Source of the DNA: a virus
DNA length: 39,497 nucleotides
Direction: 5' to 3' (one strand)
UHGV virus genome: UHGV-0087833
Shown here: piece by piece, positions 1-39,253 of the stretch
Layout: every line of letters starts with the position of its first letter
Numbering within the stretch: position 1 is the stretch's first letter
Notes under the pieces: model-generated
Databases searched by the model: none
What the model was told of the DNA's origin: nothing
Seen by the model: only the letters and a program-made list of their open reading frames with translations
Translations under genes and position numbers: made by a program

Positions 1-37
1 GTAACAGAGGGTTTTGTTCATTCATAGTGCAGGGTCA

Positions 38-2495: not shown

Positions 2496-5270
2496 TTACA
2501 CTCCTGATACTTCAATAGATAGTTGAATCTTATTTGGCATCTTGTTGCTTAAATATATGGTTGCAAAGTCAAACGAAATATTTAAGTTATTTTCATCACC
2601 ATCATTATCTGAAAGAACTCCGGTTTTCAATACAACATTTTGCTTATTAATTTCTTTTAAAGGAGAAAAATCAATTGCCTCACCACGATGAATAAGAACA
2701 CCAACTGCAATTACCCCATGAATATCAAGTATGTCGTGCATATCAAGGCGAACACATGGGACATATCCACCAACAAGGATACTTGTAGATTTGTTGGCTT
2801 CAAGTGTTATTAGATATTTTCCGTCTGGTTGAACTATTGTTCCTGCTATTCCATCTGGCGTGTTGAACATACCGCAGTATCTGTATCCTGCTCCAACAGG
2901 AACAATTCTGTTACCGCCAAGATCATGGAAATTTCGAACAATTATTGCACCAGGAACTGATGAATAAACCATTACTGCCTCTGTTTGCCCTGATACAGAG
3001 TCTGATGTTTCTGGGTTCGCCATGCATAAATTACCACCAAAATAAATATTTTGGATTAGAGGGGTGAGGCCATCATTAACCTCAAAACGTAAAAAGCCCT
3101 TGAGAACAGTCCTTGCGGTATTATTCTTAATAACAACAGGAAGTTCTTTATAGTAAGAGTTTCTGTCTGTCTGTGCCAGAGTTGTTTCAATAAAAACAAA
3201 AGGTCTGTGATTACGTTGAGTTGCATTCACAGGTTTGTACCTCAAGTTGTATGGCAAAGACATCTCAGTAAAACCATCAATATAATTACAGTTCTGAATC
3301 GTGAACCCACCACCACTATATCTTACAAAAAAAGGAGCCGGTCCGCTAAATCCCCTGGCGTTCATTCCATCATACACTTCATTTAATCCGCGTATTACAC
3401 CAGCATAATACAAATTGACTGAATTGCCGCCTGTAAAAGTTGTTTCGTATGATGGGCCGTGTCCACCGCAACATGAATTTCTTGTATCGCCATCAGGGAA
3501 AAATTTAACTCCATCATATGCAGTTCCACCACCCATCATCGTTGGATTTATAATGTTATTATACAGTGATACCATTTGAGTCCCGCTTACATCAAGCCCC
3601 CTCCTGCAAGCAAATGCTATCATATCCACGACTGTGCAATAGCTGCTATTGTATATTTCAACACCATAACCAGTGCCGTTTGTTAAATCATATGCACGGT
3701 TTGAGTATTCAATATATGGCTCTATTATTTTCGTTCTGTAGCATGACTCAAGAAAAATTCCAGTTTCTGAAAAGCCGATTAGTTTTATTCCTTCTATATG
3801 CATATCAACAGCGCCATCTATCACAAGACCACGGAACCCCAAATCACCAGGAGATGCGTTCTGCGTGACAGGTCTTTCAAAATTGAAATCACCGACAATT
3901 CTGCCGTAGCATGGTTTTCTTTTATATATATTTGCCTTTCTTGTGATTTTAAACACGTCTCCAACAGATGGTTTAAACGGGAATGGTCCCTGAGCATATT
4001 CAAATTTTGCTGTTTTAGTGTCGTAATCCCAATGAGTTATGTATCTTGATATTCCGGCGTTAGCTCCGGTGACACCTGTTACTTTTACCTGATTGTATTG
4101 TTTTGTTAATGTTGCATCATTACCAAATGAGAATTCACCTCCGGATACAGATGCTGTTACGGTCGTTGAGTAATCATTGCTCGCAGAGTAGAAAAAATAA
4201 AATGCACCTGATATCTCCGCTTTTTTTGTTGCATTATCAAAAGCAGTAACAACATGCATTTCACCTTCACAAGCCTGTCCTCTATTATCTGTCTGAATTA
4301 AGCGATTGCCATGAATCATAATTATATCGCCTGCATCAACAGAATATGCTGAGTTAATTGATATTGATGTGTCACCAGGATTTATTGTTGAATTATAGTC
4401 AATTGGCGTGGCATCTCCACCTTCGAGTCTTATGAAATAATCATCAATCCAGTTTGGGCCAAGAGGCTCTTTTGCGGTTGACTTTAAGACAACCTTGCCA
4501 TCAGCTACCCAGTCATAGTTATAATTATCCCCGCCGCATTTTATGCGGCTAATCAAATACACACCAGAATCCCACTTCAGGCGTTTTCCGTTAGATGCGC
4601 AGTAAATGATGGCATTTGTTATTGCGTCTGTATCGTCAGTAATGCCATCCCCTTTTGCACCAAAATCGCGAACATTGACGATATCCCGCATTTTATCCTG
4701 GAACGTTCGGTACACAGCCCCAGAACCATACTGAATAAACCAACCAAAACCACCAACAACCCCGGCGATTGCAGCATCGACATAATTACGCATTGAGCGA
4801 TTATTTACAGCGTCCTGCTCAAGTGATGGATCTGCAAGGTTAGAAATTTTGTTTTGCTTTGCATCGTAATATTTTGCAAGCAAAGATGGTTTCATCAATG
4901 CACGTCTGAACCACCCAAAACATCGCTGGATCAGCATCGTCAGGTAGTCAAATGCATCTTCATGAACTTCGGGGAAAAATTTTCCCTGATTGCGAAGATC
5001 AGTCTCCTGCACCACATCAAGCACACGCTCTATCGTAATTCGCCAGCCAGCAGCAAGCGGCGACGGGAGAACCACTTCACCGCCACTATAAGTGCCCGCT
5101 CCAGTTACCTTATAACCGGTATCCAGAACCAATTCTGTTACGTTCCCGTTCAGGTCAGACACCTGAACAACCAGGTCGGTTTTTTTGAAAATACGGAAGG
5201 TATACGGAAATGATGTCGTAACGCCGTTACCGGTGTATTCGTTGTGGTCAACTTCGGTTGAGACCGTCAT
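2496..5270 (-). CDS. Tailspike / tail fiber protein
   Basis: 924 aa; N-terminal tail-attachment-like domain (YTGNGVTTSFPYTF), long beta-rich body; sits between ejection proteins and lysis genes. Confidence 0.85.
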   Translation of the reverse strand: MTVSTEVDHNEYTGNGVTTSFPYTFRIFKKTDLVVQVSDLNGNVTELVLDTGYKVTGAGTYSGGEVVLPSPLAAGWRITIERVLDVVQETDLRNQGKFFPEVHEDAFDYLTMLIQRCFGWFRRALMKPSLLAKYYDAKQNKISNLADPSLEQDAVNNRSMRNYVDAAIAGVVGGFGWFIQYGSGAVYRTFQDKMRDIVNVRDFGAKGDGITDDTDAITNAIIYCASNGKRLKWDSGVYLISRIKCGGDNYNYDWVADGKVVLKSTAKEPLGPNWIDDYFIRLEGGDATPIDYNSTINPGDTSISINSAYSVDAGDIIMIHGNRLIQTDNRGQACEGEMHVVTAFDNATKKAEISGAFYFFYSASNDYSTTVTASVSGGEFSFGNDATLTKQYNQVKVTGVTGANAGISRYITHWDYDTKTAKFEYAQGPFPFKPSVGDVFKITRKANIYKRKPCYGRIVGDFNFERPVTQNASPGDLGFRGLVIDGAVDMHIEGIKLIGFSETGIFLESCYRTKIIEPYIEYSNRAYDLTNGTGYGVEIYNSSYCTVVDMIAFACRRGLDVSGTQMVSLYNNIINPTMMGGGTAYDGVKFFPDGDTRNSCCGGHGPSYETTFTGGNSVNLYYAGVIRGLNEVYDGMNARGFSGPAPFFVRYSGGGFTIQNCNYIDGFTEMSLPYNLRYKPVNATQRNHRPFVFIETTLAQTDRNSYYKELPVVIKNNTARTVLKGFLRFEVNDGLTPLIQNIYFGGNLCMANPETSDSVSGQTEAVMVYSSVPGAIIVRNFHDLGGNRIVPVGAGYRYCGMFNTPDGIAGTIVQPDGKYLITLEANKSTSILVGGYVPCVRLDMHDILDIHGVIAVGVLIHRGEAIDFSPLKEINKQNVVLKTGVLSDNDGDENNLNISFDFATIYLSNKMPNKIQLSIEVSGV

Positions 5271-5374
5271 GTTAAATCTCCAGATAGTCGCAGCACCCGT
5301 TGCGCCGCATATCTGGTTATTCTATTACCTGAAAAACCACATATGGATAGAAAGACTGTAAATACGAATAGATA

Positions 5375-5389
5375 TTACCTTTCGGGTAA
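5375..5389. promoter_or_regulatory. Operator palindrome TTACC-tttcg-GGTAA (site 1)
   Basis: Perfect 5+5 inverted repeat with 5-bp spacer between divergent tailspike and ant-operon starts. Confidence 0.6.
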
Positions 5390-5426
5390 TTTGCAAAACG
5401 TGCTGGATAGCAAACAAATTATTTGA

Positions 5427-5446
5427 TACTGTATAAATATACAGTT
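5427..5446. promoter_or_regulatory. LexA (SOS) box TACTGTATAAATATACAGTT
   Basis: CTGT-N8-ACAG with AT-rich centre, about 20 bp upstream of the first antirepressor-like gene. Confidence 0.8.
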
Positions 5447-5465
5447 ATTGCATGGAGAAGATAAG

Positions 5466-5723
5466 ATGCAGCAGTATCACTATCCACTGGAAGACGGATT
5501 TACCGAAAGGATTCACACGCCGGGAGGCGTCAGGTCACTGGTGGAGGGATCGCACTTGATGAAATTACTCCGGGATCTCGATAAGGATGGATTTAATGTC
5601 GATGGCCCACTTGCCGAACTGACTGCACTGATTAACTACGTCACCAGCTCACAGATGTCTATGCGGGATCTGCAAACACATCTCGACTATTGTGCCGAAC
5701 AATTACGAAAACAAACCAGATAA
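5466..5723 (+). CDS. Antirepressor C-terminal-domain paralog (stand-alone)
   Basis: 85 aa; clearly similar to the C-terminal 50 aa of the downstream Ant (LMKLLRDLDKDGFNVDG...DLQTHLDYC vs LMNLLNQLQEDGHDVSG...DIQTHAEYI); GGAGAA RBS. Confidence 0.65.
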   Translation: MQQYHYPLEDGFTERIHTPGGVRSLVEGSHLMKLLRDLDKDGFNVDGPLAELTALINYVTSSQMSMRDLQTHLDYCAEQLRKQTR

Positions 5724-5754: not shown

Positions 5755-5769
5755 TTACCTTTTCGGTAA
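5755..5769. promoter_or_regulatory. Operator palindrome TTACC-ttttc-GGTAA (site 2)
   Basis: Perfect inverted repeat just downstream of the Ant-C paralog stop. Confidence 0.6.
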
Positions 5770-5855: not shown

Positions 5856-5887
5856 CACATATGCCGCATAAGCGGTTTTTTTATGTG
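5856..5887 (+). terminator. Hairpin plus T7 run inside the ant leader (intrinsic terminator/attenuator candidate)
   Basis: CACATA...CCGC-ataa-GCGG-TTTTTTT-ATGTG; upstream hairpins at about 5803-5826 and 5827-5844. Confidence 0.45.
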
Positions 5888-6035
5888 TAAAGCGCACCTA
5901 TTCTATGGTGGGCTGTGTGGGGGCACCGAAAGGTGCGCCGGGTCCTTTGTAGCCGGTTACGCCAACCCTGCACAGTTCACCACCAACCGATTGGCGTCGG
6001 TAGTGGTGATTAACCTAACTACAAAGGTGATCACT

Positions 6036-6722
6036 ATGACTGCTAACGTAACCCCATCTGTTTTTCATTTTGAATCAGAAGCCACCATTCGAGCCATTGT
6101 TATTGATGGAAATCCTTGGTTTGTTGCCAAAGACGTTATTAAAGCTCTTCAACTGACAAACCCCACTATGTCAATAAAATCTCTTGATGATGATGAAAGG
6201 GCTAAATTTAACTTAGGCCGTCAAGGTGAAACCAATATTATCAACGAGTCAGGCCTCTACACACTGATCCTCCGCTGCCGCGACGCAGTGACACCAGGCA
6301 CTATCCCCTACCGCTTTCGTAAATGGGTTACAGGTGAGGTTCTTCCTCAGATCCGCCGCACCGGAAGTTACATTAAAAACTCGCTCCCGCAGGAAGAACG
6401 CATAAAGATAGTTGCCGACCAGGTAGCCAACGCCACAGCATCAGCAGTGATGCAGGCAATGAAGATAGAGAACAAAACCTACAGTGCCCCACTGAAGCCC
6501 GGCTACCGCAGCCTGATTCATTCTCCGTCTGGTGTTCTCGGCCTGACGGAGAACTCACTGCTGATGAATCTGCTGAACCAGTTACAGGAAGACGGGCACG
6601 ACGTATCGGGCGCGGCGGCGGAGCTGACCACCATGTTCTGCTACATTGTTGGTGTGAGCAAATGCCTGCGTGATATCCAGACCCACGCGGAGTACATCAA
6701 CGACAAGGCTGGGTTCTTCTGA
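6036..6722 (+). CDS. ant: Antirepressor Ant (Bro-N domain plus Ant C-terminal domain)
   Basis: Bro-N signature (GNPWFVAKDVIKAL...LDDDE...ESGLYTLIL...FRKWVTGEVLPQIRRTGSY); start at internal ATG 6036 with AAAGG RBS. Confidence 0.85.
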   Translation: MTANVTPSVFHFESEATIRAIVIDGNPWFVAKDVIKALQLTNPTMSIKSLDDDERAKFNLGRQGETNIINESGLYTLILRCRDAVTPGTIPYRFRKWVTGEVLPQIRRTGSYIKNSLPQEERIKIVADQVANATASAVMQAMKIENKTYSAPLKPGYRSLIHSPSGVLGLTENSLLMNLLNQLQEDGHDVSGAAAELTTMFCYIVGVSKCLRDIQTHAEYINDKAGFF

Positions 6723-6794: not shown

Positions 6795-6809
6795 TTACCT
6801 TAAAGGTAA
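6795..6809. promoter_or_regulatory. Operator palindrome TTACC-ttaaa-GGTAA (site 3) overlapping a sigma70-like promoter
   Basis: TTGCAG (6768-6773), 16-bp spacer, TACTAT (6790-6795), then operator and AGGAGG RBS. Confidence 0.6.
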
Positions 6810-6821
6810 AGGAGGCGCGAT

Positions 6822-6989
6822 ATGACAGCGTTGAAAAATCGTACTCAGCACAATGAACAAGCCAAGCAATGCTGGGATGTCATTGGAAAAGTTATGCTTG
6901 GCCGCGCAAGCAAAGAGCGCGACAAGGATATGGTTTACCAGACAGGAACATCTTTCAGCGACTTCAAGGCGGCATTTCGCTCCAAATAG
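6822..6989 (+). CDS. Small hypothetical protein (55 aa), first gene of accessory cassette
   Basis: ATG 6822 eight nt after AGGAGG; in-frame TAG at 6987; below the ORF-track size cut-off. Confidence 0.5.
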   Translation: MTALKNRTQHNEQAKQCWDVIGKVMLGRASKERDKDMVYQTGTSFSDFKAAFRSK

Positions 6990-7009
6990 AAGCACATCAG
7001 GAGTTTTCC

Positions 7010-7450
7010 TTGAAGTTTAACATTAGAATATCTAATAGTTTTCTACATGGGGAAAGCAACACCCCTTTCGCTGTAGACGGACCTTTCCTTACTGATGATG
7101 AAATAAAAATCATACAAAGTTTTTTAGAGGATGTTGCCAATGGAAGGGCGCTTGTTGGAAAAAACAAGCCCTCGTGGGTTGATGATAACCATGATAAAAT
7201 TCCCGGCTCAGACAATTATGAGCAAGAGAATTATTGGCATTATCATTGTGGGCCAACATGGTATCCAAACACATTTAAGAATTATACCATTAACTTAAAT
7301 TTCAACCCTGGCGGAAGGCATTCTAATGAATGCATTCATTATGCAAAAAATGATAATGAAATTGTCATTGTTGGATTTTCAAGAGAACACATACCTTTCC
7401 TTTCATCAGATGGAAACAACAATCCGCTTTTTAATGATGAAGAAGAATAG
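7010..7450 (+). CDS. Hypothetical protein in low-GC island (146 aa, TTG start proposed)
   Basis: Only in-frame start not overlapping upstream ORF is TTG 7010 with AGGAG 6 nt upstream; region visibly AT-rich relative to the rest of the phage; followed by terminator. Confidence 0.5.
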   Translation: MKFNIRISNSFLHGESNTPFAVDGPFLTDDEIKIIQSFLEDVANGRALVGKNKPSWVDDNHDKIPGSDNYEQENYWHYHCGPTWYPNTFKNYTINLNFNPGGRHSNECIHYAKNDNEIVIVGFSREHIPFLSSDGNNNPLFNDEEE

Positions 7451-7542: not shown

Positions 7543-7704
7543 ATGAAAAAAGCATTTGCTGCACTGTTCGTTTTGTTGTCTCTGGTAGCTTCAACTCAGG
7601 CCTTTGCCGGTCGTTGTCAGCACGACAGCGACACTGCTGCTGACGGCTCCCGCTGCGGTGGGCGTTCTGCGGATTCCCGCCCGGGTGGCGGTGGCATTCG
7701 TTAA
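7543..7704 (+). CDS. Small secreted peptide (53 aa precursor with signal peptide)
   Basis: MKKAFAALFVLLSLVASTQAFA-GR...: classic n/h/c signal peptide; mature part Gly-rich with 2 Cys. Confidence 0.45.
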   Translation: MKKAFAALFVLLSLVASTQAFAGRCQHDSDTAADGSRCGGRSADSRPGGGGIR

Positions 7705-7726
7705 AAACAAGGCCGCGAAAGCGGCC
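7703..7726 (-). terminator. Rho-independent terminator for the minus-strand lipoprotein transcript
   Basis: GGCCGC-gaaa-GCGGCC hairpin followed on the minus strand by TTGTTTTT. Confidence 0.55.
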
Positions 7727-7727
7727 T

Positions 7728-7739
7728 GTGACATGTCAC
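7728..7739. repeat. Perfect palindrome GTGACATGTCAC (copy 1 of 3)
   Basis: 12-bp perfect palindrome between lipoprotein stop and terminator hairpin. Confidence 0.8.
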
Positions 7740-18438: not shown

Positions 18439-19046
18439 CAGGACAACCTCGCAATGGTAAACTCGTCAACCGGTGGCTGTGGTTCCTGTGATTCATTCTG
18501 GCTATGCGAGCCAGCACTAAGAATCACGCGATTGTACATATTGAGGGCAAACGTACCGAGGTCTGCATTCCCAGTCAGCGCCATGTTAATAGCTGCCGCA
18601 AGACGCCAGGCCAACGCCTCCATAAAAATGGCATCAAACATGTTCACATCTGAAACGCGAGAGACATACTTGAGCCATGCCTGCGGCTGGTCTGTGTAGA
18701 TCAACTTTCCTGTTCCGTCGGTGTCTGCACCAACTTCGTACTGAACGCGCATTGCTGCTGTTGGATTGCGAACACCGGGAAGCATGATTTCAGTGATGCG
18801 CAGGCAATCAGACGGGTACTGATACGCATACGCCCAGTCAGGCGGTGGATTGCTCGTATCTGCAAGCGCCACGCGTTTGGTAGCAAAGTTCCAGTCAAAA
18901 TCAGAAAGCACAGCATCACGACAGGCATCGAAATGCAGGGAACACTCCCCCGCCTCTTTGCTGGCCTCAGTCAGGCTATTGATGCTGCGACTGTTGCCGA
19001 TATTCGACAGCGCGCGGTTGCAGATCTCGACAACAGAAGCCATCAC
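18438..19046 (-). CDS. Tail tubular protein A-like / adaptor
   Basis: 202 aa directly upstream of the 823-aa tube protein. Confidence 0.45.
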   Translation of the reverse strand: MMASVVEICNRALSNIGNSRSINSLTEASKEAGECSLHFDACRDAVLSDFDWNFATKRVALADTSNPPPDWAYAYQYPSDCLRITEIMLPGVRNPTAAMRVQYEVGADTDGTGKLIYTDQPQAWLKYVSRVSDVNMFDAIFMEALAWRLAAAINMALTGNADLGTFALNMYNRVILSAGSHSQNESQEPQPPVDEFTIARLS

Positions 19047-19416: not shown

Positions 19417-19752
19417 TTACACGCCCAGTTCTTTGCGCTTATCTGCGATTTTCTCGCGAAGCGTTTCGGCTTTGGCGTTATGGTGCGGCTTCTCGTTAAA
19501 GAGCAGTTCATACTCTTCGCGGATCTTATCCAGATCGCCATCTTCGGCTGCATCGTTGATGGGTTTGGCACTGGTTACGGTTTCTGCTGCTTTACCTGTA
19601 ACCTTTGCTTTCGCCGCCTTCGCTGCATCGTTGATGGGCTCCAGTGCACTACCTGGCTCGCCGTCGTATTCAATTTCAGAGCCCTCCGGCCACAGGTTAT
19701 TGTGGATATGAGAGAGGCGCAGAACGCGGTACTTCGGTTTCTCACCTGACAT
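19417..19752 (-). CDS. Hypothetical head-associated protein
   Basis: 111-aa ORF between capsid-proximal genes. Confidence 0.4.
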   Translation of the reverse strand: MSGEKPKYRVLRLSHIHNNLWPEGSEIEYDGEPGSALEPINDAAKAAKAKVTGKAAETVTSAKPINDAAEDGDLDKIREEYELLFNEKPHHNAKAETLREKIADKRKELGV

Positions 19753-19762
19753 CGATATCCCC

Positions 19763-20200
19763 TTAGCCGGTTACTTTGGAGCGGATCGGATACGGCGTAT
19801 TTGCATCAACATCCAGGTTAATGCCGGAAGTGAATTTGCCGGCCGTTAGTGGGCCAGTTGCGACGGAGTAGTTAACACGCAGATATCGCTGAACACCGGC
19901 AGGCACCTTTGCAGAAACAACTCGTTTACCTGCTGTCAGGGTAGCCTTTGCCAGTGCGCCACTATCATAAATAGTGGACCATGAGCTGTTATTCTCACTC
20001 GTCTGCAACTGGATGTTTACAGTTGCCTCACCACTTGCCGTGGCGGCTTCGTTAACCAGCGCCCAAAACTCAAGCGGGTAACCCACGCCGATATCGCGAC
20101 GATTTCCATCAATTGGACCGAGATCGATTACGTCAGTAGAAGCCGCGGTATCAGTTACCGCCTGTGCTTCGGAGAACATCAACAGTTTGTCGGTGATCAT
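19763..20200 (-). CDS. Hypothetical capsid-associated protein (decoration-like)
   Basis: 145 aa immediately downstream of major capsid gene. Confidence 0.4.
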   Translation of the reverse strand: MITDKLLMFSEAQAVTDTAASTDVIDLGPIDGNRRDIGVGYPLEFWALVNEAATASGEATVNIQLQTSENNSSWSTIYDSGALAKATLTAGKRVVSAKVPAGVQRYLRVNYSVATGPLTAGKFTSGINLDVDANTPYPIRSKVTG

Positions 20201-24144: not shown

Positions 24145-24234
24145 ATCAATGACTCCGTACGCAATTAAATCATTACCAATTTAACCACATATGATTTATT
24201 TATCGTAGAATGTTGACATTTAACGCGTGAATTA

Positions 24235-24249
24235 TTACCTTTCAGGTAA
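24235..24249. promoter_or_regulatory. Operator palindrome TTACC-tttca-GGTAA (site 4) next to TTGACA
   Basis: Perfect inverted repeat; TTGACA at 24213-24218. Confidence 0.55.
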
Positions 24250-24571: not shown

Positions 24572-24648
24572 GTGGCATTAGCTCAGTCGGACAGAGCAAC
24601 CGCCTTCTAAGCGGTTGGTCGCAGGTTCGAATCCTGCATGCCACGCCA
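24572..24648 (+). tRNA. tRNA-Arg (anticodon UCU, reads AGA)
   Basis: 7-bp acceptor stem GTGGCAT/ATGCCAC, T-loop GGTTCGAATCC, anticodon loop CTTCTAA, encoded CCA. Confidence 0.9.
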
Positions 24649-24846: not shown

Positions 24847-25218
24847 ATGAACGACAAGCAAATCGAAAAAGAAATCGTTGAGAAAGGCAAAACGGCACCG
24901 CGCGTTACGCCAGACCATATCGAAGGCATTATTGCTCAGGAGGCATATTTCACAGCAGAAGATGGTGCCTTTGGCAAAGCCATAAAAGCGAAACATACTG
25001 GCGGAGAGGTAAACTACCAGCCGCACGAATCACTTTCTCTGCTGACGTTCTGCGTCCTGGTGCTGCGCAACGGCTTCACCGTCACCGGAGAGAGCGCCTG
25101 TGCAAGCCCGGAAAACTTTGATGCAGAAATTGGTCGGAAGATTGCCCGGCAGAATGCTGTAAACAAAATCTGGATGCTCGAAGGTTACTTGCTGAAGCAG
25201 AAGCTAAGCGAGCAATAA
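24847..25218 (+). CDS. Phage protein, Gp49-like
   Basis: 123 aa with AAGGTGAG RBS; family assignment from memory. Confidence 0.5.
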   Translation: MNDKQIEKEIVEKGKTAPRVTPDHIEGIIAQEAYFTAEDGAFGKAIKAKHTGGEVNYQPHESLSLLTFCVLVLRNGFTVTGESACASPENFDAEIGRKIARQNAVNKIWMLEGYLLKQKLSEQ

Positions 25219-25222
25219 CACC

Positions 25223-25234
25223 GTGACATGTCAC
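25223..25234. repeat. Perfect palindrome GTGACATGTCAC (copy 2 of 3)
   Basis: Sits 4 bp after the Gp49-like stop and 4 bp before terminator hairpin. Confidence 0.8.
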
Positions 25235-25238
25235 AAAC

Positions 25239-25265
25239 AGCCAGCCGATGAGCTGGCTTTGTTTT
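25239..25265 (+). terminator. Rho-independent terminator of the tRNA / Gp49-like unit
   Basis: AGCCAGC-cgatga-GCTGGCT followed by TTGTTTT. Confidence 0.7.
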
Positions 25266-25308: not shown

Positions 25309-26784
25309 TTAAGCATAGGGATCGTAATCTGTGATGGCCTTGCCTTGCTGGTTCTGCTGCCCGGGAATTCGCAGACGCTTCGACACAGGGAACGCAAACG
25401 TCAGCAGTAGCGCATCGCCTTTACCAGGCGAACGCCCAAGCCGCTCCTTGATATCTTCCTTCGGTTCGATAACGATTTTACCGTCCACTCGAACTTTGTA
25501 CTCTGCCGCCGACAGATCGTCCGCTGTTTCCTGGTCATCCAGCATCCCGCCCAGCCTCAGCCATGTCTTGCATGAGTTGAACATCTCCCCACGCTTGTTG
25601 AGCATCTGCTGGTCAGTAGACGCGCCACCGAACGGAACAAGTTGCCATGTACGACCCCAGCCGTCACCGATTGACTTCAAACCGGTTCCGTAACCGAAGT
25701 CGATGAACACCGCGTCAGCCTGATACTGGTCTTCAAAGTCAGCGATACGCTTCGCCATAATCAGATCGTCGGTAGTCTTGTTGCCAGTCCACAGCACCTT
25801 ACTGTGTAGCCCCTGCCGCAGGTATATCACAGCGTCATCAACGCCGGAGTATGCCGGGTCAACGCCGATTATCACCGGAGCATGTGCAACCTGCGCAGCG
25901 GTGACCACCCGTTTCATTGCCTCGTCAGTAAGTCCGGTAGGGATAAACTGCAATTCAGATGCATCCGGGAATATGCCGCGCACACGGATTTTAACGAAGT
26001 CGCTGTCTTCCCCGTAGTCATCAACCCATTTCTGCAACTGCTGTTTGTTAGTGCCTTCCACCGTCCGGCTGTCAATCTGCGCAGTTTTCCAGCGGTGTTT
26101 ATATTTGCGGAAACATTCGCGGAAACGCCCGGTGTTACGTGTAGGGTTTCCGAACGCCACCCAGATAATCTCAGTGTCTTCGTCCGTAAGCGCACCCTCA
26201 GCAACTTCCCACACCAGATCCGCAATGTTCGACGCTTCATCGAATACCACGATGATGCGTTTGCGCTCGTTGTGTAGTCCGGCGAATGCCTCAGTGTTGT
26301 GCTCAGACCAGGGGATTGCGTCAGCTCGCCACCGCTTGTCGTGCCCAGGATCATTGCTGTACATCGCGGTAGCGGTACAGGTAAACCAGTCTTTCGTGAT
26401 AGCAAGGTTCGACCACTTGATAATTTCCGGCCAGGTCTTCGTTCGTAGCTGGTTGTCGGTGTTGGCGGTCACCACGACCTTACAATCCTCGCAAGTGGAC
26501 ATGCCCCAGTTGATCAGCATTGAGATGAATGCGGATTTACCAATACCGTGACCAGAAGCGCGTGCCAGCATAAGCGGCTGATAGCGCGTCGCTGGATTCT
26601 GCAGGTGATCACGTATCTCTCGGAACGCATCAGCCTGCCACTGACGTGGGCCGGTAGCATGTGCCAGTTCAGTCCCTTCTTCCCCCCACGGGAACGCATA
26701 GAGGGCATAGCCAAGCGGATCGTGAGTGAACCCTGCAATATCCTCGATCAACTGCTCTTCAGGAGATAACGCTGTATCTGTCAC
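25309..26784 (-). CDS. Terminase large subunit
   Basis: 491 aa; Walker A-like ASGHGIGKS; acidic nuclease-type C-terminal half. Confidence 0.9.
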   Translation of the reverse strand: MTDTALSPEEQLIEDIAGFTHDPLGYALYAFPWGEEGTELAHATGPRQWQADAFREIRDHLQNPATRYQPLMLARASGHGIGKSAFISMLINWGMSTCEDCKVVVTANTDNQLRTKTWPEIIKWSNLAITKDWFTCTATAMYSNDPGHDKRWRADAIPWSEHNTEAFAGLHNERKRIIVVFDEASNIADLVWEVAEGALTDEDTEIIWVAFGNPTRNTGRFRECFRKYKHRWKTAQIDSRTVEGTNKQQLQKWVDDYGEDSDFVKIRVRGIFPDASELQFIPTGLTDEAMKRVVTAAQVAHAPVIIGVDPAYSGVDDAVIYLRQGLHSKVLWTGNKTTDDLIMAKRIADFEDQYQADAVFIDFGYGTGLKSIGDGWGRTWQLVPFGGASTDQQMLNKRGEMFNSCKTWLRLGGMLDDQETADDLSAAEYKVRVDGKIVIEPKEDIKERLGRSPGKGDALLLTFAFPVSKRLRIPGQQNQQGKAITDYDPYA

Positions 26785-27377
26785 TGATTGCCATCCTGAC
26801 GTTCTTTCAGTCTCTTCCTGGCTGCCGCTATGCGATCAGCAATTGTCACATTCACATTAACATCCAGGCGTTCTTTGAACGCGTTGACATCAACATGCTT
26901 ACCAATCAGCTCAAGGTTCTTCACCTTGTCAGGCCATTTAATTTTTTTGAGGATTGTCTCTATCGAATCCTCGTTCATGTTCATGATGGTCGATGACAGA
27001 TCAAAGCCGCTAAGCGTAGTGCGCCAGATTTTCGGCCACTCACGGATTGGTTTAAGGCTCCCATCGTCGTTGAGGATGTCGATCACGTCCATCTGGTCGA
27101 TCTCCACCAGGCGCATGAGAACGTAATCAGCACTGACGCGCATTCGTTTGTTGCGCTCCTCCATCAACTCGGCAATCCGTTTTTGAATGCGTTCATCGCG
27201 CATCATGACACTAGCTTTAACTGCCGCTGTATTTGGAGAGAATCCTGCGTTAATCGCTGCCTGAGTCTGATTTTCAGGCGTTTTGATGTATGACTGGCAA
27301 TAAGCCTCCTGCATTGCTGTTAGTGGCTTAAATTGCGTTGATTTGCGTTTATAGGTTTTAGGTTCAGCAGGCATCAT
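26781..27377 (-). CDS. Terminase small subunit
   Basis: N-terminal LTAMQEAYCQSYIKTPENQTQAAINAGFSP motif; start at ATG 27377 (GGTGG RBS). Confidence 0.8.
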   Translation of the reverse strand: MMPAEPKTYKRKSTQFKPLTAMQEAYCQSYIKTPENQTQAAINAGFSPNTAAVKASVMMRDERIQKRIAELMEERNKRMRVSADYVLMRLVEIDQMDVIDILNDDGSLKPIREWPKIWRTTLSGFDLSSTIMNMNEDSIETILKKIKWPDKVKNLELIGKHVDVNAFKERLDVNVNVTIADRIAAARKRLKERQDGNQ

Positions 27378-27384
27378 AACCACC

Positions 27385-27416
27385 GTGGTAATAGTTACCG
27401 TTGTGGTAATAGTACC
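27385..27416. repeat. Tandem repeat GTGGTAATAGT(T)ACC x2 just upstream of terS
   Basis: Two near-identical 14-15-bp copies, each an internal GGTAA-tag-TTACC palindrome. Confidence 0.6.
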
Positions 27417-27420
27417 ATGC

Positions 27421-27446
27421 AAAATAAAGCCGCCATAGTTGGCGGC
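27421..27446 (-). terminator. Rho-independent terminator upstream of terS on the late-operon strand
   Basis: GCCGCCA-acta-TGGCGGC followed on the minus strand by TTTATTTT. Confidence 0.6.
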
Positions 27447-27487
27447 AGTATTCAAAACCCATCAAATTCATCATGCATAATCTACTC

Positions 27488-27499
27488 GTGACATGTCAC
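27488..27499. repeat. Perfect palindrome GTGACATGTCAC (copy 3 of 3)
   Basis: Overlaps stop codon of the 113-aa gene, about 40 bp before the terminator. Confidence 0.8.
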
Positions 27500-27837
27500 A
27501 CTATTAATTTCGTTTCATGCCAGCCTTTAGTCACCCAGCATTGTGAGTCACCATTACACGGACATGAATTAACTGGAACTCTCTCGCCGCACTTACCGCA
27601 ACGTTTTCTGCTGATCGATTTTATACGCCCGCGCACGCGTGCATCATCCTGGCGGATCAGTAACGCTATATACTCACCAAATTCGTAAGGCGCACGCCCG
27701 GGGCGACGCGTGGCACAGTTACGCTCCAGCATTTCAATTTCCTGAGCATCAAGCACAATTTCCAGCTTACGCACACCAGATGCAGCTTGTCTGGCTCTCT
27801 GAGCGGCTTTGCGCTCTGCTGCTGATTTAGCCATCAA
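27496..27837 (-). CDS. Cys-rich putative regulator in the Q-equivalent position
   Basis: 113 aa; basic N-terminus, C-terminal CGKCGERVPVNSCPCNGDSQCW cluster; last early gene before the late-operon terminator. Confidence 0.4.
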   Translation of the reverse strand: MMAKSAAERKAAQRARQAASGVRKLEIVLDAQEIEMLERNCATRRPGRAPYEFGEYIALLIRQDDARVRGRIKSISRKRCGKCGERVPVNSCPCNGDSQCWVTKGWHETKLIV

Positions 27838-28368: not shown

Positions 28369-29177
28369 TTCGCCTCCTGCGGCGGCTCTGGTAGCGGCAT
28401 CCAGTGAGTTACGTCATCCAAGATATTTCCTGATAAATACGTGAAAGCTCTATATTTTTTGTAATCAATTGGATTTACAACCCAGTTCCAATATGCTGCC
28501 ACGATTTCACCTTGACTAAATGCCAGTAACATTTTGGTGTCTTCCGGCATTAGATCACTACAGCTTATCCAACCATCCGGAGTTACCGGATAGTTGCCAT
28601 TTACATCGAAGTTTGGCTCTGCGTCCTGAACCAGGAGGATGTAACCATTCTTGGCCGTATCAAGTTCTAACGCCTCAGTGACGGTGCCGAAATAGCGATT
28701 ACCTAAATCAGCATCACAAGTGCTTACATCAATGGAAACTTCCATGCCTTCGATTAATTCTGCCAAGTTGTAAGCTTGGCTTACAGGTTCGGCTTCCAGT
28801 TCTGCTATGCGCTTATTTGCTGCTTCCAGCTCAACACGCAGCTTCCCTACCGTTAGCGCAATTTCCTCGTTCTCCTGGTCGCGGCGTTTGATGTATTGCT
28901 GGTTTCTTTCCCGTTCATCCAGAAGCGCCAGCACAGTAGCCGGATTGGCTGCGGCGATGAATTCAGCATTGGCCTGCTGTTCAGTTTGGAAATCTTCATC
29001 GAAACCGCTTTCAGGATGCGCTCCTTCAATTCTGCAAATGGGAATATATCCAGCAACTTCACGATGAATTAGCGCATCATCACCATCAAATCGGCCCTTT
29101 CCATATTCGAGCGACCACTCACCACACGTTGCTTTTTCTGCCTTAGCACGCAGTACCTGATAGTCAATCTTGCTCAT
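28365..29177 (-). CDS. Ead/Ea22-like protein with DUF551-like C-terminus
   Basis: 270 aa; coiled-coil middle; C-terminal ...THWMPLPEPP. Confidence 0.5.
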   Translation of the reverse strand: MSKIDYQVLRAKAEKATCGEWSLEYGKGRFDGDDALIHREVAGYIPICRIEGAHPESGFDEDFQTEQQANAEFIAAANPATVLALLDERERNQQYIKRRDQENEEIALTVGKLRVELEAANKRIAELEAEPVSQAYNLAELIEGMEVSIDVSTCDADLGNRYFGTVTEALELDTAKNGYILLVQDAEPNFDVNGNYPVTPDGWISCSDLMPEDTKMLLAFSQGEIVAAYWNWVVNPIDYKKYRAFTYLSGNILDDVTHWMPLPEPPQEAK

Positions 29178-31046: not shown

Positions 31047-31061
31047 TTACCTCTGAGGTAA
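31047..31061. promoter_or_regulatory. Operator palindrome TTACC-tctga-GGTAA (site 5), 3 bp from the start codon
   Basis: On the coding strand reads TTACCTCAGAGGTAAATCATG; right half coincides with the SD-like GAGGT. Confidence 0.55.
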
Positions 31062-31108
31062 TTAAAAACCACATAAGACACGAAATCAATAGAGTTTAGA
31101 ATATTTTA

Positions 31109-31123
31109 TTACCTAACAGGTAA
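31109..31123. promoter_or_regulatory. Operator palindrome TTACC-taaca-GGTAA (site 6)
   Basis: Perfect inverted repeat in the 117-bp gap between P-like and DUF1064-like genes. Confidence 0.55.
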
Positions 31124-33124: not shown

Positions 33125-33355
33125 TCATGAGTAGAAGAAGTATGCCAGTTCTGCTTTTGAGCGCAGCCATTGTCTTGATTTACAGGCTTTAAAAAGCCCA
33201 TTCATCAATACCTTACCTGGCATTTTGCGCTTACCTGTTAAGTGAGTCTGGATATAGTGACTCGTCGTTCCGGCTTCCTGTGCGAAGGCTTCACGCTCAT
33301 CCGGAGTAAGTGCAAGCCAGTGCTTTTTGAAATCGAAATGTCCGTTATCGCTCAT
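33125..33355 (-). CDS. Cro-like HTH protein, first gene of rightward lytic operon
   Basis: 76 aa; HTH-like AFAQEAGTTSHYIQTHL; divergent from repressor across the operator cluster. Confidence 0.55.
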   Translation of the reverse strand: MSDNGHFDFKKHWLALTPDEREAFAQEAGTTSHYIQTHLTGKRKMPGKVLMNGLFKACKSRQWLRSKAELAYFFYS

Positions 33356-33439: not shown

Positions 33440-33454
33440 TTACCTGTTGGGTAA
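33440..33454. promoter_or_regulatory. Operator TTACC-tgttg-GGTAA (site 10, OR-like cluster)
   Basis: Perfect palindrome about 55 bp upstream of the repressor start. Confidence 0.6.
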
Positions 33455-33509: not shown

Positions 33510-34094
33510 ATGAAAAGTATCCAGGACGTCCGCAGGCAAAATCTCAACGACTTGATCGACCGTGAATTCAATGGTGTTCAGACGCGGATGGCTGAAAAAC
33601 TTGGAACTCAGGCAAATCTGGTAAACCGCTGGGCTCTTGGCAAGAAGGTTATCGGCGACCAGGTTGCGCGAAAAATTGAAGCTGCCGCCAATAAACCCCG
33701 TAACTGGCTTGATATCGATCGCTCGCTTTCTCAGGAAGGTTTTCAGCCTGTCGGACCAAGCGACATTGGTCAACTGGCGGCTCACAACCTGGAACGCTGG
33801 ATGAGCGAAAGCCGCGACCTTTCAACGCAGGGAAAACTTCACCGCGCATCCGGCGTCGCCCAGGTAACAATCAGCCGCCTGTTAAACAATGAGGTCAGCG
33901 TTTCCATTTCCACCCTGGAGAATGTTGCATCCGCATTTGGGCGTCACGGATATGAATTACTGATTCACCCGCACGACCCCGCGACTATCAACTATGACCG
34001 CTCGCGCTACGCATTGTTACCTGAAACAGAGAAGGCAAAGATCGAAAGTTACATTGAATTTGTCATCAACCAGAACGAAAAAAATAAACAATAA
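33510..34094 (+). CDS. Prophage repressor candidate, tandem HTH_XRE domains, no S24 peptidase domain
   Basis: Two HTH-like segments (QTRMAEKLGTQANLVNRW and HRASGVAQVTISRLL); no Ser/Lys autocleavage module; position equals lambda cI. Confidence 0.6.
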   Translation: MKSIQDVRRQNLNDLIDREFNGVQTRMAEKLGTQANLVNRWALGKKVIGDQVARKIEAAANKPRNWLDIDRSLSQEGFQPVGPSDIGQLAAHNLERWMSESRDLSTQGKLHRASGVAQVTISRLLNNEVSVSISTLENVASAFGRHGYELLIHPHDPATINYDRSRYALLPETEKAKIESYIEFVINQNEKNKQ

Positions 34095-34151: not shown

Positions 34152-34166
34152 TTACCTAACGGGTAA
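34152..34166. promoter_or_regulatory. Operator TTACC-taacg-GGTAA (site 11, OL-like)
   Basis: Perfect palindrome upstream of TTGACA at 34186-34191. Confidence 0.6.
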
Positions 34167-34213: not shown

Positions 34214-34228
34214 TTACCTCAACGGTAA
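34214..34228. promoter_or_regulatory. Operator TTACC-tcaac-GGTAA (site 12, OL-like) at the leftward-operon promoter
   Basis: Perfect palindrome downstream of TTGACA; extra GGTAA half-site at 34237. Confidence 0.6.
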
Positions 34229-35520: not shown

Positions 35521-36458
35521 GCAACGACATCGTAAACATCAACGCACCAGTAGACACAGCAATCGCTGGAACTGCTGCAACTATTTTCAGCCCAGACGGC
35601 TTGAACCAACTGATGAAATTCGCCGAGGTAATGGCGCAAAGCCGCGTAACGGTACCGGCGCACCTCGCCGGGAAACCAGCTGATTGCATGGCCGTGGCAA
35701 TGCAGGCTGCGCAGTGGGGAATGAACCCGTTTGCCGTGGCTCAGAAAACCCATGTTGTGAACGGCACGCTAGGTTATGAAGCCCAATTAGTAAACGCAGT
35801 TATCTCAACGATGTCGCCAACAAAAGATCGCATCAACTACGAGTGGTTCGGGCCGTGGGAACGCGTGATCGGTAAGTTTGTTGAGAAAACATCCAAAAAC
35901 GGCAATCCATATATCGCACCAGGCTGGACTCTAAAAGACGAAGAAGGCTGCGGTGTTCGCGTATGGGCAACCATGAAGGGCGAGGATCAACCTCGAGTGC
36001 TTGAGTTAATGCTGTCTCAAGCACAGGTAAGAAACTCCACACTTTGGGCCAGTGATCCGAAACAACAACTCGCATACCTTGCGACAAAACGCTGGTCTCG
36101 CTTGCACTGTCCTGACGTAATCATGGGCGTCTACACACCAGACGAATTACAGGAAACGGCACCGCGCGTTGAGCGAGACATTACTCCGCAAACGACCACT
36201 GCTGCGGGAATGAACAGTCTGATCAACGCTAAACCAGTGAAAAAGCCTGATGAGCAAACGCGTAAAGCGGATAGCCGTGATCCAGAAGAAATGCTGATGG
36301 CCTTTACCAGCGCAGCGATGAATTACAGCACTGTCTCCGAACTGGATAAGGCTTACAAATACATTGCACAAAAACTTTCAGATGATGACGAACTGCTGGC
36401 AAAAGCCACCGACGTTTACAGCGTTCGTCGGGAAGAATTAAACGAAACATCTATGTAA
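35517..36458 (+). CDS. recT: RecT-family single-strand annealing protein
   Basis: 313 aa from ATG 35517 (ATGA overlap with exonuclease stop). Confidence 0.7.
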   Translation: MSNDIVNINAPVDTAIAGTAATIFSPDGLNQLMKFAEVMAQSRVTVPAHLAGKPADCMAVAMQAAQWGMNPFAVAQKTHVVNGTLGYEAQLVNAVISTMSPTKDRINYEWFGPWERVIGKFVEKTSKNGNPYIAPGWTLKDEEGCGVRVWATMKGEDQPRVLELMLSQAQVRNSTLWASDPKQQLAYLATKRWSRLHCPDVIMGVYTPDELQETAPRVERDITPQTTTAAGMNSLINAKPVKKPDEQTRKADSRDPEEMLMAFTSAAMNYSTVSELDKAYKYIAQKLSDDDELLAKATDVYSVRREELNETSM

Positions 36459-36865: not shown

Positions 36866-37165
36866 GTGAGAAAGTTAAGCCGACTTGAAAAATATCACAT
36901 GAACAAGGTTTCAATGCGCAGCCCTTCAAAGGTTGTTGCCGTTACTCCTGCGGCGATAGAGATCGAAAAACGCGCGATTGAAAGAGAGAAAAAAGGGCAG
37001 TTCCGCATTGCCGCCCACCTTTGGCTTCAGTGTATGGATGTTGCTTCTGGTGATGTTGAGCGTGCAAGGATCGCGGTTCGCAGGGACCAATGTATCACAA
37101 AAGGTAACGGCCTTCGCCGTGGCGACTATAGCGGCATAGGATGTTGTGGGGTGGTTTATGACTAA
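36866..37165 (+). CDS. Hypothetical protein
   Basis: 99-aa ORF overlapping methyltransferase start; start codon uncertain. Confidence 0.3.
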   Translation: MRKLSRLEKYHMNKVSMRSPSKVVAVTPAAIEIEKRAIEREKKGQFRIAAHLWLQCMDVASGDVERARIAVRRDQCITKGNGLRRGDYSGIGCCGVVYD

Positions 37166-38002: not shown

Positions 38003-39253
38003 TTATTCTCCCGCCATCCACTTCTCAAACTTCGACGGGGAGAACGGAATCAGATCCGTATGCTCCCCGTCAATCCAGGAATCAATCATATCGGCCCACT
38101 GCTGCAACATGTAGGCGCGCTGTCTGGCGTATTCCGCTTTGTTATATACGGCGCGCACACCTTTCTGCTCATGTGCCAGAGCCTTTTCAATCCAGTCTGA
38201 AGGATAACCAGCCTCATGCAACAACGTACTGGCTGTACGGCGCATATCATGTACGGTGAAGTCCTGAATATGCTCACCATCTTCATTTATTATTTTCACC
38301 GTTCTGTCGATCAGAGAGTTCAGCGCGGCATTAGATAATGGCTTCCGGAAATTGTAACGACCAGGAACCAGATATTCACTTCCACCAGCGCACATCTGCA
38401 ACCCAACCAATATATCCTGTGCCTGTTTAGGCAGGTAAATAACGTGCGCCCGGCTTCCCTTCATGCGGTCTGAAGGAATTGTCCATGTCCATTTTTTAAA
38501 ATCTATTTCATCCCACGTTGCATTGGTGAATTCGCCTTTACGAACCATAGTGATAAGCACCAGCTTTAAAGCCATTTTCATAGTGCCCATAGCACCAATG
38601 GCATCCAGCGTGCGGAAGAACAGGCCAATTTCTTCTGGTGTCAGTGTTCGCTCTCGTGGTTTAAATATGGCGATAGACGAAGGTTTAATGTCAGCCGCAG
38701 GATTAAACAAACCATGACCACGGTCATTGGCGTGACGGTATACGCTGCTGATGATCTCCCTGGCCTGTACTGCTGTTGCCCGACCACCGCGTTCGACAAT
38801 CCGGTCACACAAATCACGAACCATCGATGTGGTAATTTCAGCCATCATTTTGTTGCCAAGAACCGGAAGTATGTCACGGTCGATCACCGCCTGCTTCATT
38901 GCGCGGGTACTGTCAGCCAGGATGACGTGTTTCATATAACTGTCGGTATGTACCGCAAACGTCTCGGCACCACGAATCTTTTTGATACCGTCACGTTTAG
39001 CCGCAGCCGGTGACTGGCCTGCTTTAAGCAGCTTCTTTGCAGCAATCAGTTCTTCTCGCGCTTCTGCCAGGCTGATACCGTCACGCCCATACTGCCCGAT
39101 TACCAGTGTTTCGCGGCGACCGTTGATACGGTAGTCATAGCGAAACGAGACCGTGCCTGACGTAAGCACAGCTACATACAGCCCGTCACGATCGGAGACC
39201 TTGTACAGTTTGTCCTGCGGCTTGAGGTTTTTTAATTTTGTATCGGTAAGCAC
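38003..39253 (-). CDS. int: Tyrosine integrase
   Basis: 416 aa; C-terminal catalytic region (HDMRRTASTLLHEAGY...); GTG start with upstream in-frame stop; next to att core. Confidence 0.9.
   Translation of the reverse strand: MLTDTKLKNLKPQDKLYKVSDRDGLYVAVLTSGTVSFRYDYRINGRRETLVIGQYGRDGISLAEAREELIAAKKLLKAGQSPAAAKRDGIKKIRGAETFAVHTDSYMKHVILADSTRAMKQAVIDRDILPVLGNKMMAEITTSMVRDLCDRIVERGGRATAVQAREIISSVYRHANDRGHGLFNPAADIKPSSIAIFKPRERTLTPEEIGLFFRTLDAIGAMGTMKMALKLVLITMVRKGEFTNATWDEIDFKKWTWTIPSDRMKGSRAHVIYLPKQAQDILVGLQMCAGGSEYLVPGRYNFRKPLSNAALNSLIDRTVKIINEDGEHIQDFTVHDMRRTASTLLHEAGYPSDWIEKALAHEQKGVRAVYNKAEYARQRAYMLQQWADMIDSWIDGEHTDLIPFSPSKFEKWMAGE

Follow-up and report, generated by a model that had tools for sequence, protein, structure and literature searches.

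The 39,497-nucleotide stretch analyzed here, UHGV virus genome UHGV-0087833 (hereafter the window), is an almost complete genome of a temperate podovirus of the epsilon15/phiV10 type, genus Uetakevirus, 39.5 kb in length. Over most of its length, it is 97-98% identical to PAS61, phiv142-3, ZX5, TL-2011b, and phiV10. This group includes serotype-converting phages as well as reporter phages for E. coli O157, and a literature search found no established account of late-gene activation in it. The subject of this analysis is the boundary at which the early-right operon ends and the packaging genes begin. There, a gene for a small basic protein of 113 amino acids (aa), a 12-bp palindrome over its stop codon, and an intrinsic terminator are followed by terS, which encodes the small subunit of the terminase. 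The first-pass annotation had read this arrangement as an antitermination switch, with the 113-aa protein in the place of the Q protein of phage lambda.

Organization of the boundary between the early-right operon and terS

The early-right operon lies on the minus strand and extends from the immunity region (~33.4 kb) down to the 113-aa gene (open reading frame, ORF, 27837..27496), which is its final gene. Downstream of it are terS, terL, an insertion of plus-strand cargo, and then the portal and structural genes. The terS gene (26781..27377, minus strand) matches Pfam Terminase_2 (E 1e-29) and belongs to phrog_51. The gene for the large subunit, terL (25309..26784, minus strand), belongs to phrog_2 and is annotated in relatives; the TerL type by annotation is that of P1 PacB/Sf6. 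The start of terS reads ATGATG and is preceded by GGTGG (27380..27384, minus strand), a Shine-Dalgarno (SD) element recognized by reading the sequence and kept in relatives as GGTGG or GGCGG.

The elements that the first-pass annotation had placed at this boundary are all present. The last early gene does encode a basic protein with a C-terminal cysteine cluster, on the minus strand, although its true start is probably the ATG at 27834 instead of the listed TTG, giving 112 aa as in the database homologs. Its TGA stop codon lies inside the palindrome GTGACATGTCAC (27499-27488), and the terminator expected about 40 bp further on begins 41 nt past the palindrome. This intrinsic terminator of the early-right operon (27420..27446, minus strand) has a stem at 27446-27429 and a T-tract at 27428-27421. 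Specifically, a 7-bp stem with six GC pairs encloses a 4-nt loop, GCCGCCA-ACTA-TGGCGGC, and is followed by TTTATTTT, with an energy of -14.5 kcal/mol. A rho-independent terminator is annotated here in epsilon15 and phiV10.

The distance between palindrome and terminator varies. The 41 nt seen here compare with 22 nt in epsilon15, the spacing in relatives ranges from 19 to 44 nt, it is ~60 nt in a Yersinia phage, and in some genomes whole genes are inserted between the two elements. The spacer of the window, ATGCATGATGAATTTGATGGGTTTTGA (27452..27478, minus strand), is a remnant of a gene that relatives have at this place, namely of its 3' end (...YDEFDGL* in the relatives), and this deletion accounts for the difference between 41 and 22 nt. 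A mini-ORF before the terminator, MHDEFDGF*, was considered as a leader peptide of an attenuator and rejected because it is the C-terminal relic (...YDEFDGL*) of the gene found in ~25 close relatives. The single pR'-like promoter match, GTGACA-N18-CATGAT, also falls in the relic spacer and so would have arisen at the deletion junction. It is missing in one relative (locus L106), where reading of the sequence found no -10-like element at the corresponding position.

A strong terminator follows the palindrome in many phage backbones. The terminator position is taken in other backbones by unrelated hairpins, and the pairing of palindrome and terminator is seen with four hairpins that are unrelated to each other. 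No terminator follows the palindrome in N15, in Chlobot, or in many E. coli relatives.

The inserted genes show how the region is built. In ~25 of 80 close relatives, an extra gene starts 9 nt past the palindrome (L009-type loci), and in a Citrobacter prophage a LexA-controlled cargo gene has been inserted at the same boundary. In both types of insertion, the palindrome stays with the 113-aa gene, and the terminator, the -10 motif, and the operator described below stay with terS. The region therefore splits into two modules. As judged from these sequence comparisons, module A is the 113-aa gene with its palindrome, and module B is the terminator, the candidate promoter with its operator, and terS-terL.

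The phrog_536 protein and the linked palindrome

The palindrome GTGACATGTCAC occurs three times in the window, against ~0.002 copies expected. Copy 1 (27488..27499), which includes the TGA stop of the 113-aa gene, is the presumed binding site of the 113-aa protein. Copy 2 (25223..25234) is at the convergent junction of terL (minus strand) and a cargo gene (plus strand), with counterparts at 2142 in epsilon15 and 2145 in SPC32H. It lies 4 nt from the hairpin between these two genes, a terminator-like element of AGCCAGCCGATGAGCTGGCT then TTGTTTTATC (25239..25258, plus strand, -11.6 kcal/mol) that has undergone compensatory stem changes in SPC32H. Copy 3 (7728..7739) is at the end of the structural operon, where that operon converges with a small plus-strand ORF. 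Its counterparts are at 19517 in epsilon15, where the copy includes the stop of gp18, at 19634 in SPC32H, and at 18526 in BUCT711. The intrinsic terminator that ends the structural operon (7710..7727, minus strand, -13.3 kcal/mol) abuts copy 3. Both epsilon15 and SPC32H have exactly three copies of GTGACATGTCAC, at places homologous to those of the window. BUCT711 has two places in common with the window, and its third copy is intragenic. Among the Uetakeviruses compared, the 12-mer is invariant while the flanking DNA and the adjoining hairpins have diverged, with compensatory changes in the stems.

The cargo slot beside copy 2 holds at least five different genes in relatives, each ending 4-5 nt from the palindrome. 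In the window, the plus-strand insertion between terL and the portal operon consists of tRNA-Arg(tct) (24572-24648) and a gene of the N4 gp49/Sf6 gp66 family (24847-25218). The small ORF that converges on copy 3 (~7543-7704, plus strand) has a signal-peptide-like N-terminus (MKKAFAALFVLLSLVASTQAFA...) and a hairpin in common with the structural operon.

Palindrome and gene are paired across Uetakevirus, N15-like, P2-like, and lambdoid phages. The same register over the stop codon (G+TGA+8 nt) is found in epsilon15, SPC32H, BUCT711, Omnitron, N15, the Yersinia phage, and the prophages of nine out of 14 species. In N15, the stop of gene 46, whose product is a homolog of the 113-aa protein with 35% identity, lies inside GTGACTGGTCAC in the identical register. 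In the Yersinia phage, which is P2-like, TTGTGACGCGTCACAA spans the stop of a homolog with 42% identity and is the sole exact copy of GTGAC-NN-GTCAC in that genome. Citrobacter phage Omnitron has GTGACATGTCAC at the stop of its homolog, yet it is without the TTACC-N5-GGTAA operators that the Uetakeviruses carry. When the position is allowed to shift slightly, GTGAC-NN-GTCAC is found at the homolog stop or no more than 7 nt away in 11 of the 14 prophages of different species, and at or within 8 nt of the stop in lambdoid prophages and Chlobot as well. N15 has additional copies at 28550-28561, flanked by gene 33 and the terminator that precedes the antirepressor operon, and at 33237-33248, inside repA.

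Throughout these phages the arms of the palindrome are fixed, and the central dinucleotide varies (AT, TG, GC, AC, CT, or AG). Fixed arms around a variable center are the signature of a dimeric protein-binding site. The palindrome was also considered as an RNA hairpin, which was rejected since a 5-bp stem with a 2-nt loop is unfeasible and it is the center that varies and the arms that are fixed. On the evidence of these comparisons, the palindrome moves with the 113-aa gene, in at least five phage backbones, and not with the Uetakevirus backbone.

The 113-aa protein is basic, with a pI of 9.78 and 23 lysines and arginines versus 13 aspartates and glutamates, and it has cysteines at positions 41, 80, 83, 92, 94, and 100. 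It matched no Pfam or NCBIfam family but is a member of phrog_536, which carries the label 'transcriptional regulator'; the homologs in databases are nearly all called 'hypothetical protein'. A word-index search places 625 homologs in this family, in ~154 clusters at 50% identity. The AlphaFold model is confident (pLDDT 93.7, from a 57-sequence alignment) and predicts a beta-alpha-alpha core corresponding to the ribbon-helix-helix (RHH) fold, followed by a long helix. In profile comparisons of the family, residues 49-110, which comprise the C-terminal helix and the cysteine cluster, gave marginal matches to TraR and YbiI (E 0.025-0.04). These are DksA/TraR zinc-finger proteins that bind in the secondary channel of RNA polymerase. 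However, none of the phrog_536 members tested matched Pfam zf-dskA_traR, and the cysteine spacing of the family (CxxC...C...C) is unlike the DksA/TraR motif, CxxC-x17-CxxC. The similarity is therefore treated solely as a lead. No homology of the 113-aa protein to Q, N, or another antiterminator was found.

Because gene and site are linked and the predicted fold is RHH, it is likely that the 113-aa protein binds the palindrome. A full-text search of the accessible papers for the 12-mer returned none. As far as can be told, a phrog_536 protein paired with a stop-embedded GTGAC-NN-GTCAC, with extra copies at operon ends and arms resembling those of matS, is undescribed.

The immunity operator and the candidate terS promoter

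Between the terminator and the SD of terS, the first-pass annotation had noted a tandem repeat of two units. The repeat exists, as an exact 11-nt direct repeat with 18-nt spacing (27413-27403 and 27395-27385), and GGTGG is present after it, but the repeated unit is not what is conserved. Drift affects the outer arms of the repeat in relatives such as epsilon15 and SPC32H (GGTA to GTTA; TTACCAC to TTACTTC), and the string that is conserved consists of TGnTA(c/g)TA joined directly to TTACC-N5-GGTAA, a -10 motif followed by an operator. The repeat was also considered as a binding array for the 113-aa protein and rejected, as it amounts to one operator copy plus the -10 motif and its outer arms are unconserved.

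The operator at the core of the repeat, TTACCACAACGGTAA in the minus-strand reading (27395..27409), is one of ten copies of TTACC-N5-GGTAA in the window. All ten are intergenic, and the mean in 300 shuffles was 0.04. There are 11 copies in epsilon15 and ten in SPC32H, at homologous places. In the epsilon15 record, a protein_bind feature named 'repressor', TTACCAAAACGGTAAT at 12..27, lies between the terminator and terS and forms an inverted repeat across the junction of the two repeat copies. The operator sequence used here is based on this annotation together with the motif statistics of the present analysis. The Rep-operator system is already known, with its operators annotated in the epsilon15 record. 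The window encodes a clear homolog of SPC32H Rep (PDB 5d50, E 4e-42), a Rep-type prophage repressor of 194 aa (33510..34094, plus strand), and its sites match those of the known system, including the one before terS. Very probably, then, TTACC-N5-GGTAA is the site of Rep, which is its presumed binder.

The Rep gene itself is flanked by three operators. One (33440..33454) is in the divergent region of the repressor and a cro-like gene, and two (34152-34166 and 34214-34228) bracket a TTGACA...CATAAT promoter of the leftward early operon, with the copy at 34214 directly after that promoter. The other operators are at the heads of units: terS, the portal operon, the tailspike gene, two Ant-type genes, and the resolvase gene. 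Upstream of the portal/structural operon, the operator is at 24235..24249 (epsilon15 equivalent annotated at 2931), and two copies precede the resolvase gene within the early-right operon (31047-31061 and 31109-31123; epsilon15 equivalent at 35906). A further copy (5375..5389; epsilon15 equivalent at 19895) lies between the tailspike gene on the minus strand and an ant-like gene with a LexA box on the plus strand. The copy at 5755..5769 adjoins the promoter-like sequence (TTGCAA-17-TATTAT) ahead of an Ant-type antirepressor gene (5883..6722). Finally, the copy at 6795..6809 has the same left flank as that at terS, GTACTA before TTACC, and is right before the SD and ATG of the gene at 6869..7450.

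The proposed terS promoter is an extended -10 motif, TGGTACTAT (TGgTACTAT; 27409..27417, minus strand), with a predicted start near 27402, ~25 nt before the ATG. Its final T is the first T of the operator, a register that is repeated at 5755 and 6795, and its geometry with the operator equals that of the operator-linked promoter of the Ant-type gene in the window. TGnTA(c/g)TAT is kept on the 5' side of the operator in seven diverged relatives, including epsilon15, SPC32H, 66FD, and prophages of Citrobacter, Superficieibacter, and Klebsiella, while the flanks drift. The motif is also retained in a Pseudocitrobacter prophage (L100) that has lost the terminator, and a Samsonia prophage, which lacks the palindrome as well as the terminator, has it again as TGGTATGAT. 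Judged by this conservation, the existence of a repressible promoter between the terminator and terS is reasonably probable. In the Samsonia erythrinae prophage, the terL homolog (3940-5577 of its locus) has a large intein-like insertion right after Walker A (GHGIGK).

Two other features were observed near the operators. A third recurring motif, YCWTATGTGGTTWWW, is found on the minus strand at 5335-5342, 24183-24190, and 31067-31074, and in epsilon15 at 2991 and 24754. It lies 35-55 nt downstream of an operator copy, ahead of the genes for the tailspike and the resolvase and of the portal operon, as well as of the lysis genes in epsilon15. This motif is a candidate late-promoter element, separate from the terS promoter. 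In addition, a canonical LexA box, CTGTATAAATATACAG (5429-5444), precedes a small ant-like ORF (5448-5723, plus strand; phrog_450/1760), and a second, larger Ant-type antirepressor gene (5883-6722, plus strand) is behind the operator-covered TTGCAA-17-TATTAT promoter. With a LexA box and Ant-type genes in this position, induction appears to be driven by SOS-controlled antirepression, which is reportedly the induction route of SPC32H.

Interpretation of the boundary

The best explanation of the locus as a whole is a boundary of two modules, in which a terminator is followed by a Rep-repressible terS promoter that lacks a -35 element. The chances that this complete account is right or wrong seem evenly balanced. 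According to it, early-right transcription would stop at the terminator, and the packaging genes would be transcribed from their own extended -10 promoter. In the lysogen, the Rep-type repressor would shut this promoter by occupying the operator over its start region. After derepression, the weak promoter would fire, with probable help from the RHH protein at its site ~90 bp upstream, an arrangement like that of RinA. The RHH protein would also mark two further operon ends, at palindrome copies 2 and 3. The sequence elements with their copy numbers and conservation, the modularity, the RHH fold, and the Rep homology are observations; promoter activity, the assignment of each protein to its site, and the sign of the effect of the RHH protein are all inferred from the sequence. 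A positive action of the 113-aa protein on terS transcription, which is suggested by analogy, is tentative and somewhat doubtful, although it ranks above each of the other roles considered below.

The analogy is with late activation of the RinA type in staphylococcal and other Gram-positive phages, in which a regulator gene and a terminator are followed, 23-24 nt before terS, by a promoter that depends on the activator, and the DNA determinants are far upstream (PMC3152322). The architecture of the boundary appears to match this precedent closely. In both cases, the final early gene encodes a small regulator and is followed directly by a terminator and then by terS (PMC3152322). Each has a separate promoter, here a candidate, with a start ~23-25 nt before the ATG of terS (~25 nt predicted here), and the DNA determinants of the regulator, presumed ones in this phage, are a long way upstream, by the 3' end of the regulator gene itself. 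In contrast, no sequence relation was found between the two regulators. The 113-aa protein, with its RHH fold, its cysteine cluster, and no Pfam or NCBIfam match, did not prove homologous to RinA, and activation is carried over to this phage from the analogy. Moreover, the promoter here is also covered by an immunity operator, and the site of the protein is also found at two other operon ends. The Ogr protein of P2 and the Delta protein of P4 offer a second comparison, as zinc-finger late activators that are small, basic Cys4 phage regulators recognizing inverted repeats. They differ from the 113-aa protein in cysteine spacing and in fold, and each late promoter has an Ogr site (TGT-N12-ACA at -55) ahead of it, whereas the one exact copy of the palindrome in the P2-like Yersinia phage is that at the homolog stop.

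Several observations weigh against the favored account, including its proposed activation of terS by the RHH protein. The candidate promoter has only a 4/6 match at -10, with TGn, and no -35. Copies 2 and 3 are without a plausible promoter nearby, and activation leaves them unexplained, as it does N15 gene 47 and the L009-type loci, where the SD of the next gene directly follows the palindrome. From the palindrome to the predicted start, the distance is ~92 bp here but ~74 bp in epsilon15, without conservation of phase, and inserted genes lengthen it to several hundred bp. A class-I activator acting at a fixed helical phase was rejected on these grounds, since distances of ~74, 92, and 96 bp are inconsistently phased. 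Across homologs, the residues of the beta-strand show no sorting by presence or absence of the palindrome. The SPC32H/SPN1S-type homolog (38396-38632) is without the conserved basic N-terminal arm (RK..QR.R), yet SPC32H retains three palindromes; either binding can do without the arm, or the annotated start is wrong or frameshifted. A test by co-absence was also sought, and among the Uetakevirus relatives examined none was without the 113-aa gene. Finally, a PerC-family transcriptional activator (PF06069, 30.1 bits; phrog_868) encoded in the leftward early operon (36866-37165, plus strand) could be another candidate for the late regulator.

The alternative that survives best, although it is unlikely, is that the palindrome-bound protein acts as a roadblock. 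It would block polymerase or help to stop it at operon ends, reinforcing terminators and letting one-way hairpins work both ways at convergent junctions, and in mid-operon it would throttle the genes downstream. Such a role fits every site context without a nearby promoter. Copies 2 and 3 are exactly at convergent junctions beside one shared hairpin with a U-tract on one side only, and the sites of N15 and the L009-type loci are within a transcribed region directly before the next gene. However, a roadblock would be redundant with terminators that are already strong (-11.6 to -14.5 kcal/mol), and a block over its own stop codon would truncate the mRNA of the protein. In addition, the operon to which the gene belongs is shut by repression in the lysogen, precisely when insulation of cargo would matter most. 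A more novel reading, which is also quite unlikely, would make the phrog_536 protein a DNA-tethered transcription-boundary factor of a new type, with RHH and zinc cluster acting on a matS-like palindrome at operon ends. The polymerase at the adjoining terminator would then be controlled by timed read-through or by a two-way stop, and the gene and its site would form a self-contained cassette moving among unrelated types of phage.

Antitermination in the manner of lambda Q, as favored by the first-pass annotation, now appears improbable. The 113-aa protein on its palindrome would make RNA polymerase resistant to termination, allowing read-through from the early promoter into terS-terL and, late in infection, past the terminators at copies 2 and 3. 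Read in the direction of the gene ending at each site, copies 1 and 3 are indeed followed by strong terminators, as is copy 2 on the plus strand, and the recurrence of palindrome and then terminator with unrelated hairpins across backbones is as expected. A processive mechanism would also tolerate variable spacing and inserted genes, and the marginal matches of the cysteine-cluster half to the polymerase binders TraR and YbiI point the same way. In Omnitron and in locus L104, the ORF order as read by inspection has the cassette ahead of nin-type genes, followed by a Q-type gene and one for a holin; this is a tR2-like position, as in lambdoid carriers. As at lambda Q and pR'-tR', a regulator gene ends an early operon, a strong terminator precedes late genes, and the presumed DNA site of the regulator is upstream of that terminator.

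The differences from lambda are nonetheless substantial. The 113-aa protein has no homology to Q-lambda, Q82, or Q21, and no RHH protein is known to act as an antiterminator. Late genes of the Uetakeviruses are in several units, each with its own operator, and there is no convincing constitutive promoter with an embedded site and pause. The sole pR'-like match is an artefact of the deletion that left the relic spacer. The conserved extended -10 motif and operator are downstream of the terminator, so read-through is unnecessary, and because RinA works without antitermination, a terminator before terS need not imply it. Homologs also coexist with other regulator genes. N15 has an annotated Q-like gene 40, with its own late promoter and terminator, besides gene 46; the ORFs downstream of the Omnitron homolog read ninB...rusA...Q...holin in a manual reading of gene order; and the Yersinia phage has a regulator gene in the position of Ogr. 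The strong direction at copy 2 belongs to the cargo gene, where read-through would be antisense to terL, and in BUCT711 the order of palindrome and hairpin is flipped relative to the strong direction. The palindromes of N15, Chlobot, and many E. coli relatives, moreover, have no terminator after them. Thus, of the proposed switch, a regulator of DNA-binding type with a cis site at the boundary stands, whereas the Q-like core has become less likely. Since a stop-linked palindrome is found in at least five backbones, frequently with a strong terminator, some regulatory coupling at the boundary is plausible.

Distinctly improbable is an architectural role, in which a MatP-like protein would bridge or mark GTGAC-NN-GTCAC, organizing phage DNA or disturbing host SMC/MukBEF, or in which MatP of the host would itself bind. 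The matS consensus is 13 bp, GTGACRNYGTCAC (PMC6907758, PMC3603311), and its arms are identical to the GTGAC/GTCAC arms of the palindrome. The long helix after the RHH core is also as in MatP, and three dispersed copies are conserved in the Uetakeviruses. Bobay et al. found true matS to be absent from 500 enterobacterial prophages, which makes a conserved near-matS noteworthy. Against this, profile comparison with MatP by hhalign gave a probability of <1%, and the protein is too short for the N-terminal four-helix bundle of MatP and has a cysteine cluster instead of a coiled coil. Neither the window nor SPC32H was found to contain a true matS; the phage sites all measure 12 bp and never 13, so that binding by host MatP is doubtful. 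Most carriers outside the Uetakeviruses also have a single copy, which leaves nothing to bridge. If architectural, MatP-like, and other roles are all taken together, their likelihood rises to somewhere between improbable and unlikely.

It is highly improbable that the palindrome is merely a recombination joint, a module-boundary sequence unrelated to the protein and linked to it by movement of the cassette. Mosaic breakpoints do fall exactly at the palindrome edge, ~25 loci diverge right past GTGACATGTCACGA, all three copies are at module borders, and the cargo genes abutting copy 2 are of at least five different kinds. However, a variable center with fixed arms fits recognition by a protein and not recombination driven by identity, the register to the stop is kept down to 35% protein identity, and 12 bp are too short for homologous exchange. 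A pac site, with the intergenic elements forming part of the packaging-recognition site of the terminase, is scarcely credible: the elements are immediately upstream of terS, copies 1 and 2 bracket terS-terL, and the phiV10 and epsilon15 records are numbered from here, but the 'repeat' is one of ten genome-wide operator copies, the palindrome-gene pair is far from the packaging genes in N15 and the lambdoid phages, and record starts just past a gene stop or a terminator look like a numbering convention and not a mapped end. A physical genome end (cos or pac) at the palindrome was rejected for a similar reason, as the phiV10 record ends there but the epsilon15 record ends after the terminator.

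In conclusion, on the resulting map of the window each transcription unit is headed by a repressor operator, terS has a candidate promoter of its own, and another cis element, so far undescribed, is added. The more general result is the pairing of this palindrome with phrog_536, a widespread and unnamed family in which the site is kept down to ~35% identity. In its arms the palindrome imitates matS, which prophages otherwise avoid. If it is true that the protein acts on termination or on the chromosome-organizing machinery, this would amount to a regulatory device new for phages. If it is merely an activator or repressor, a large family of 'hypothetical proteins' and its operator would still gain a name.

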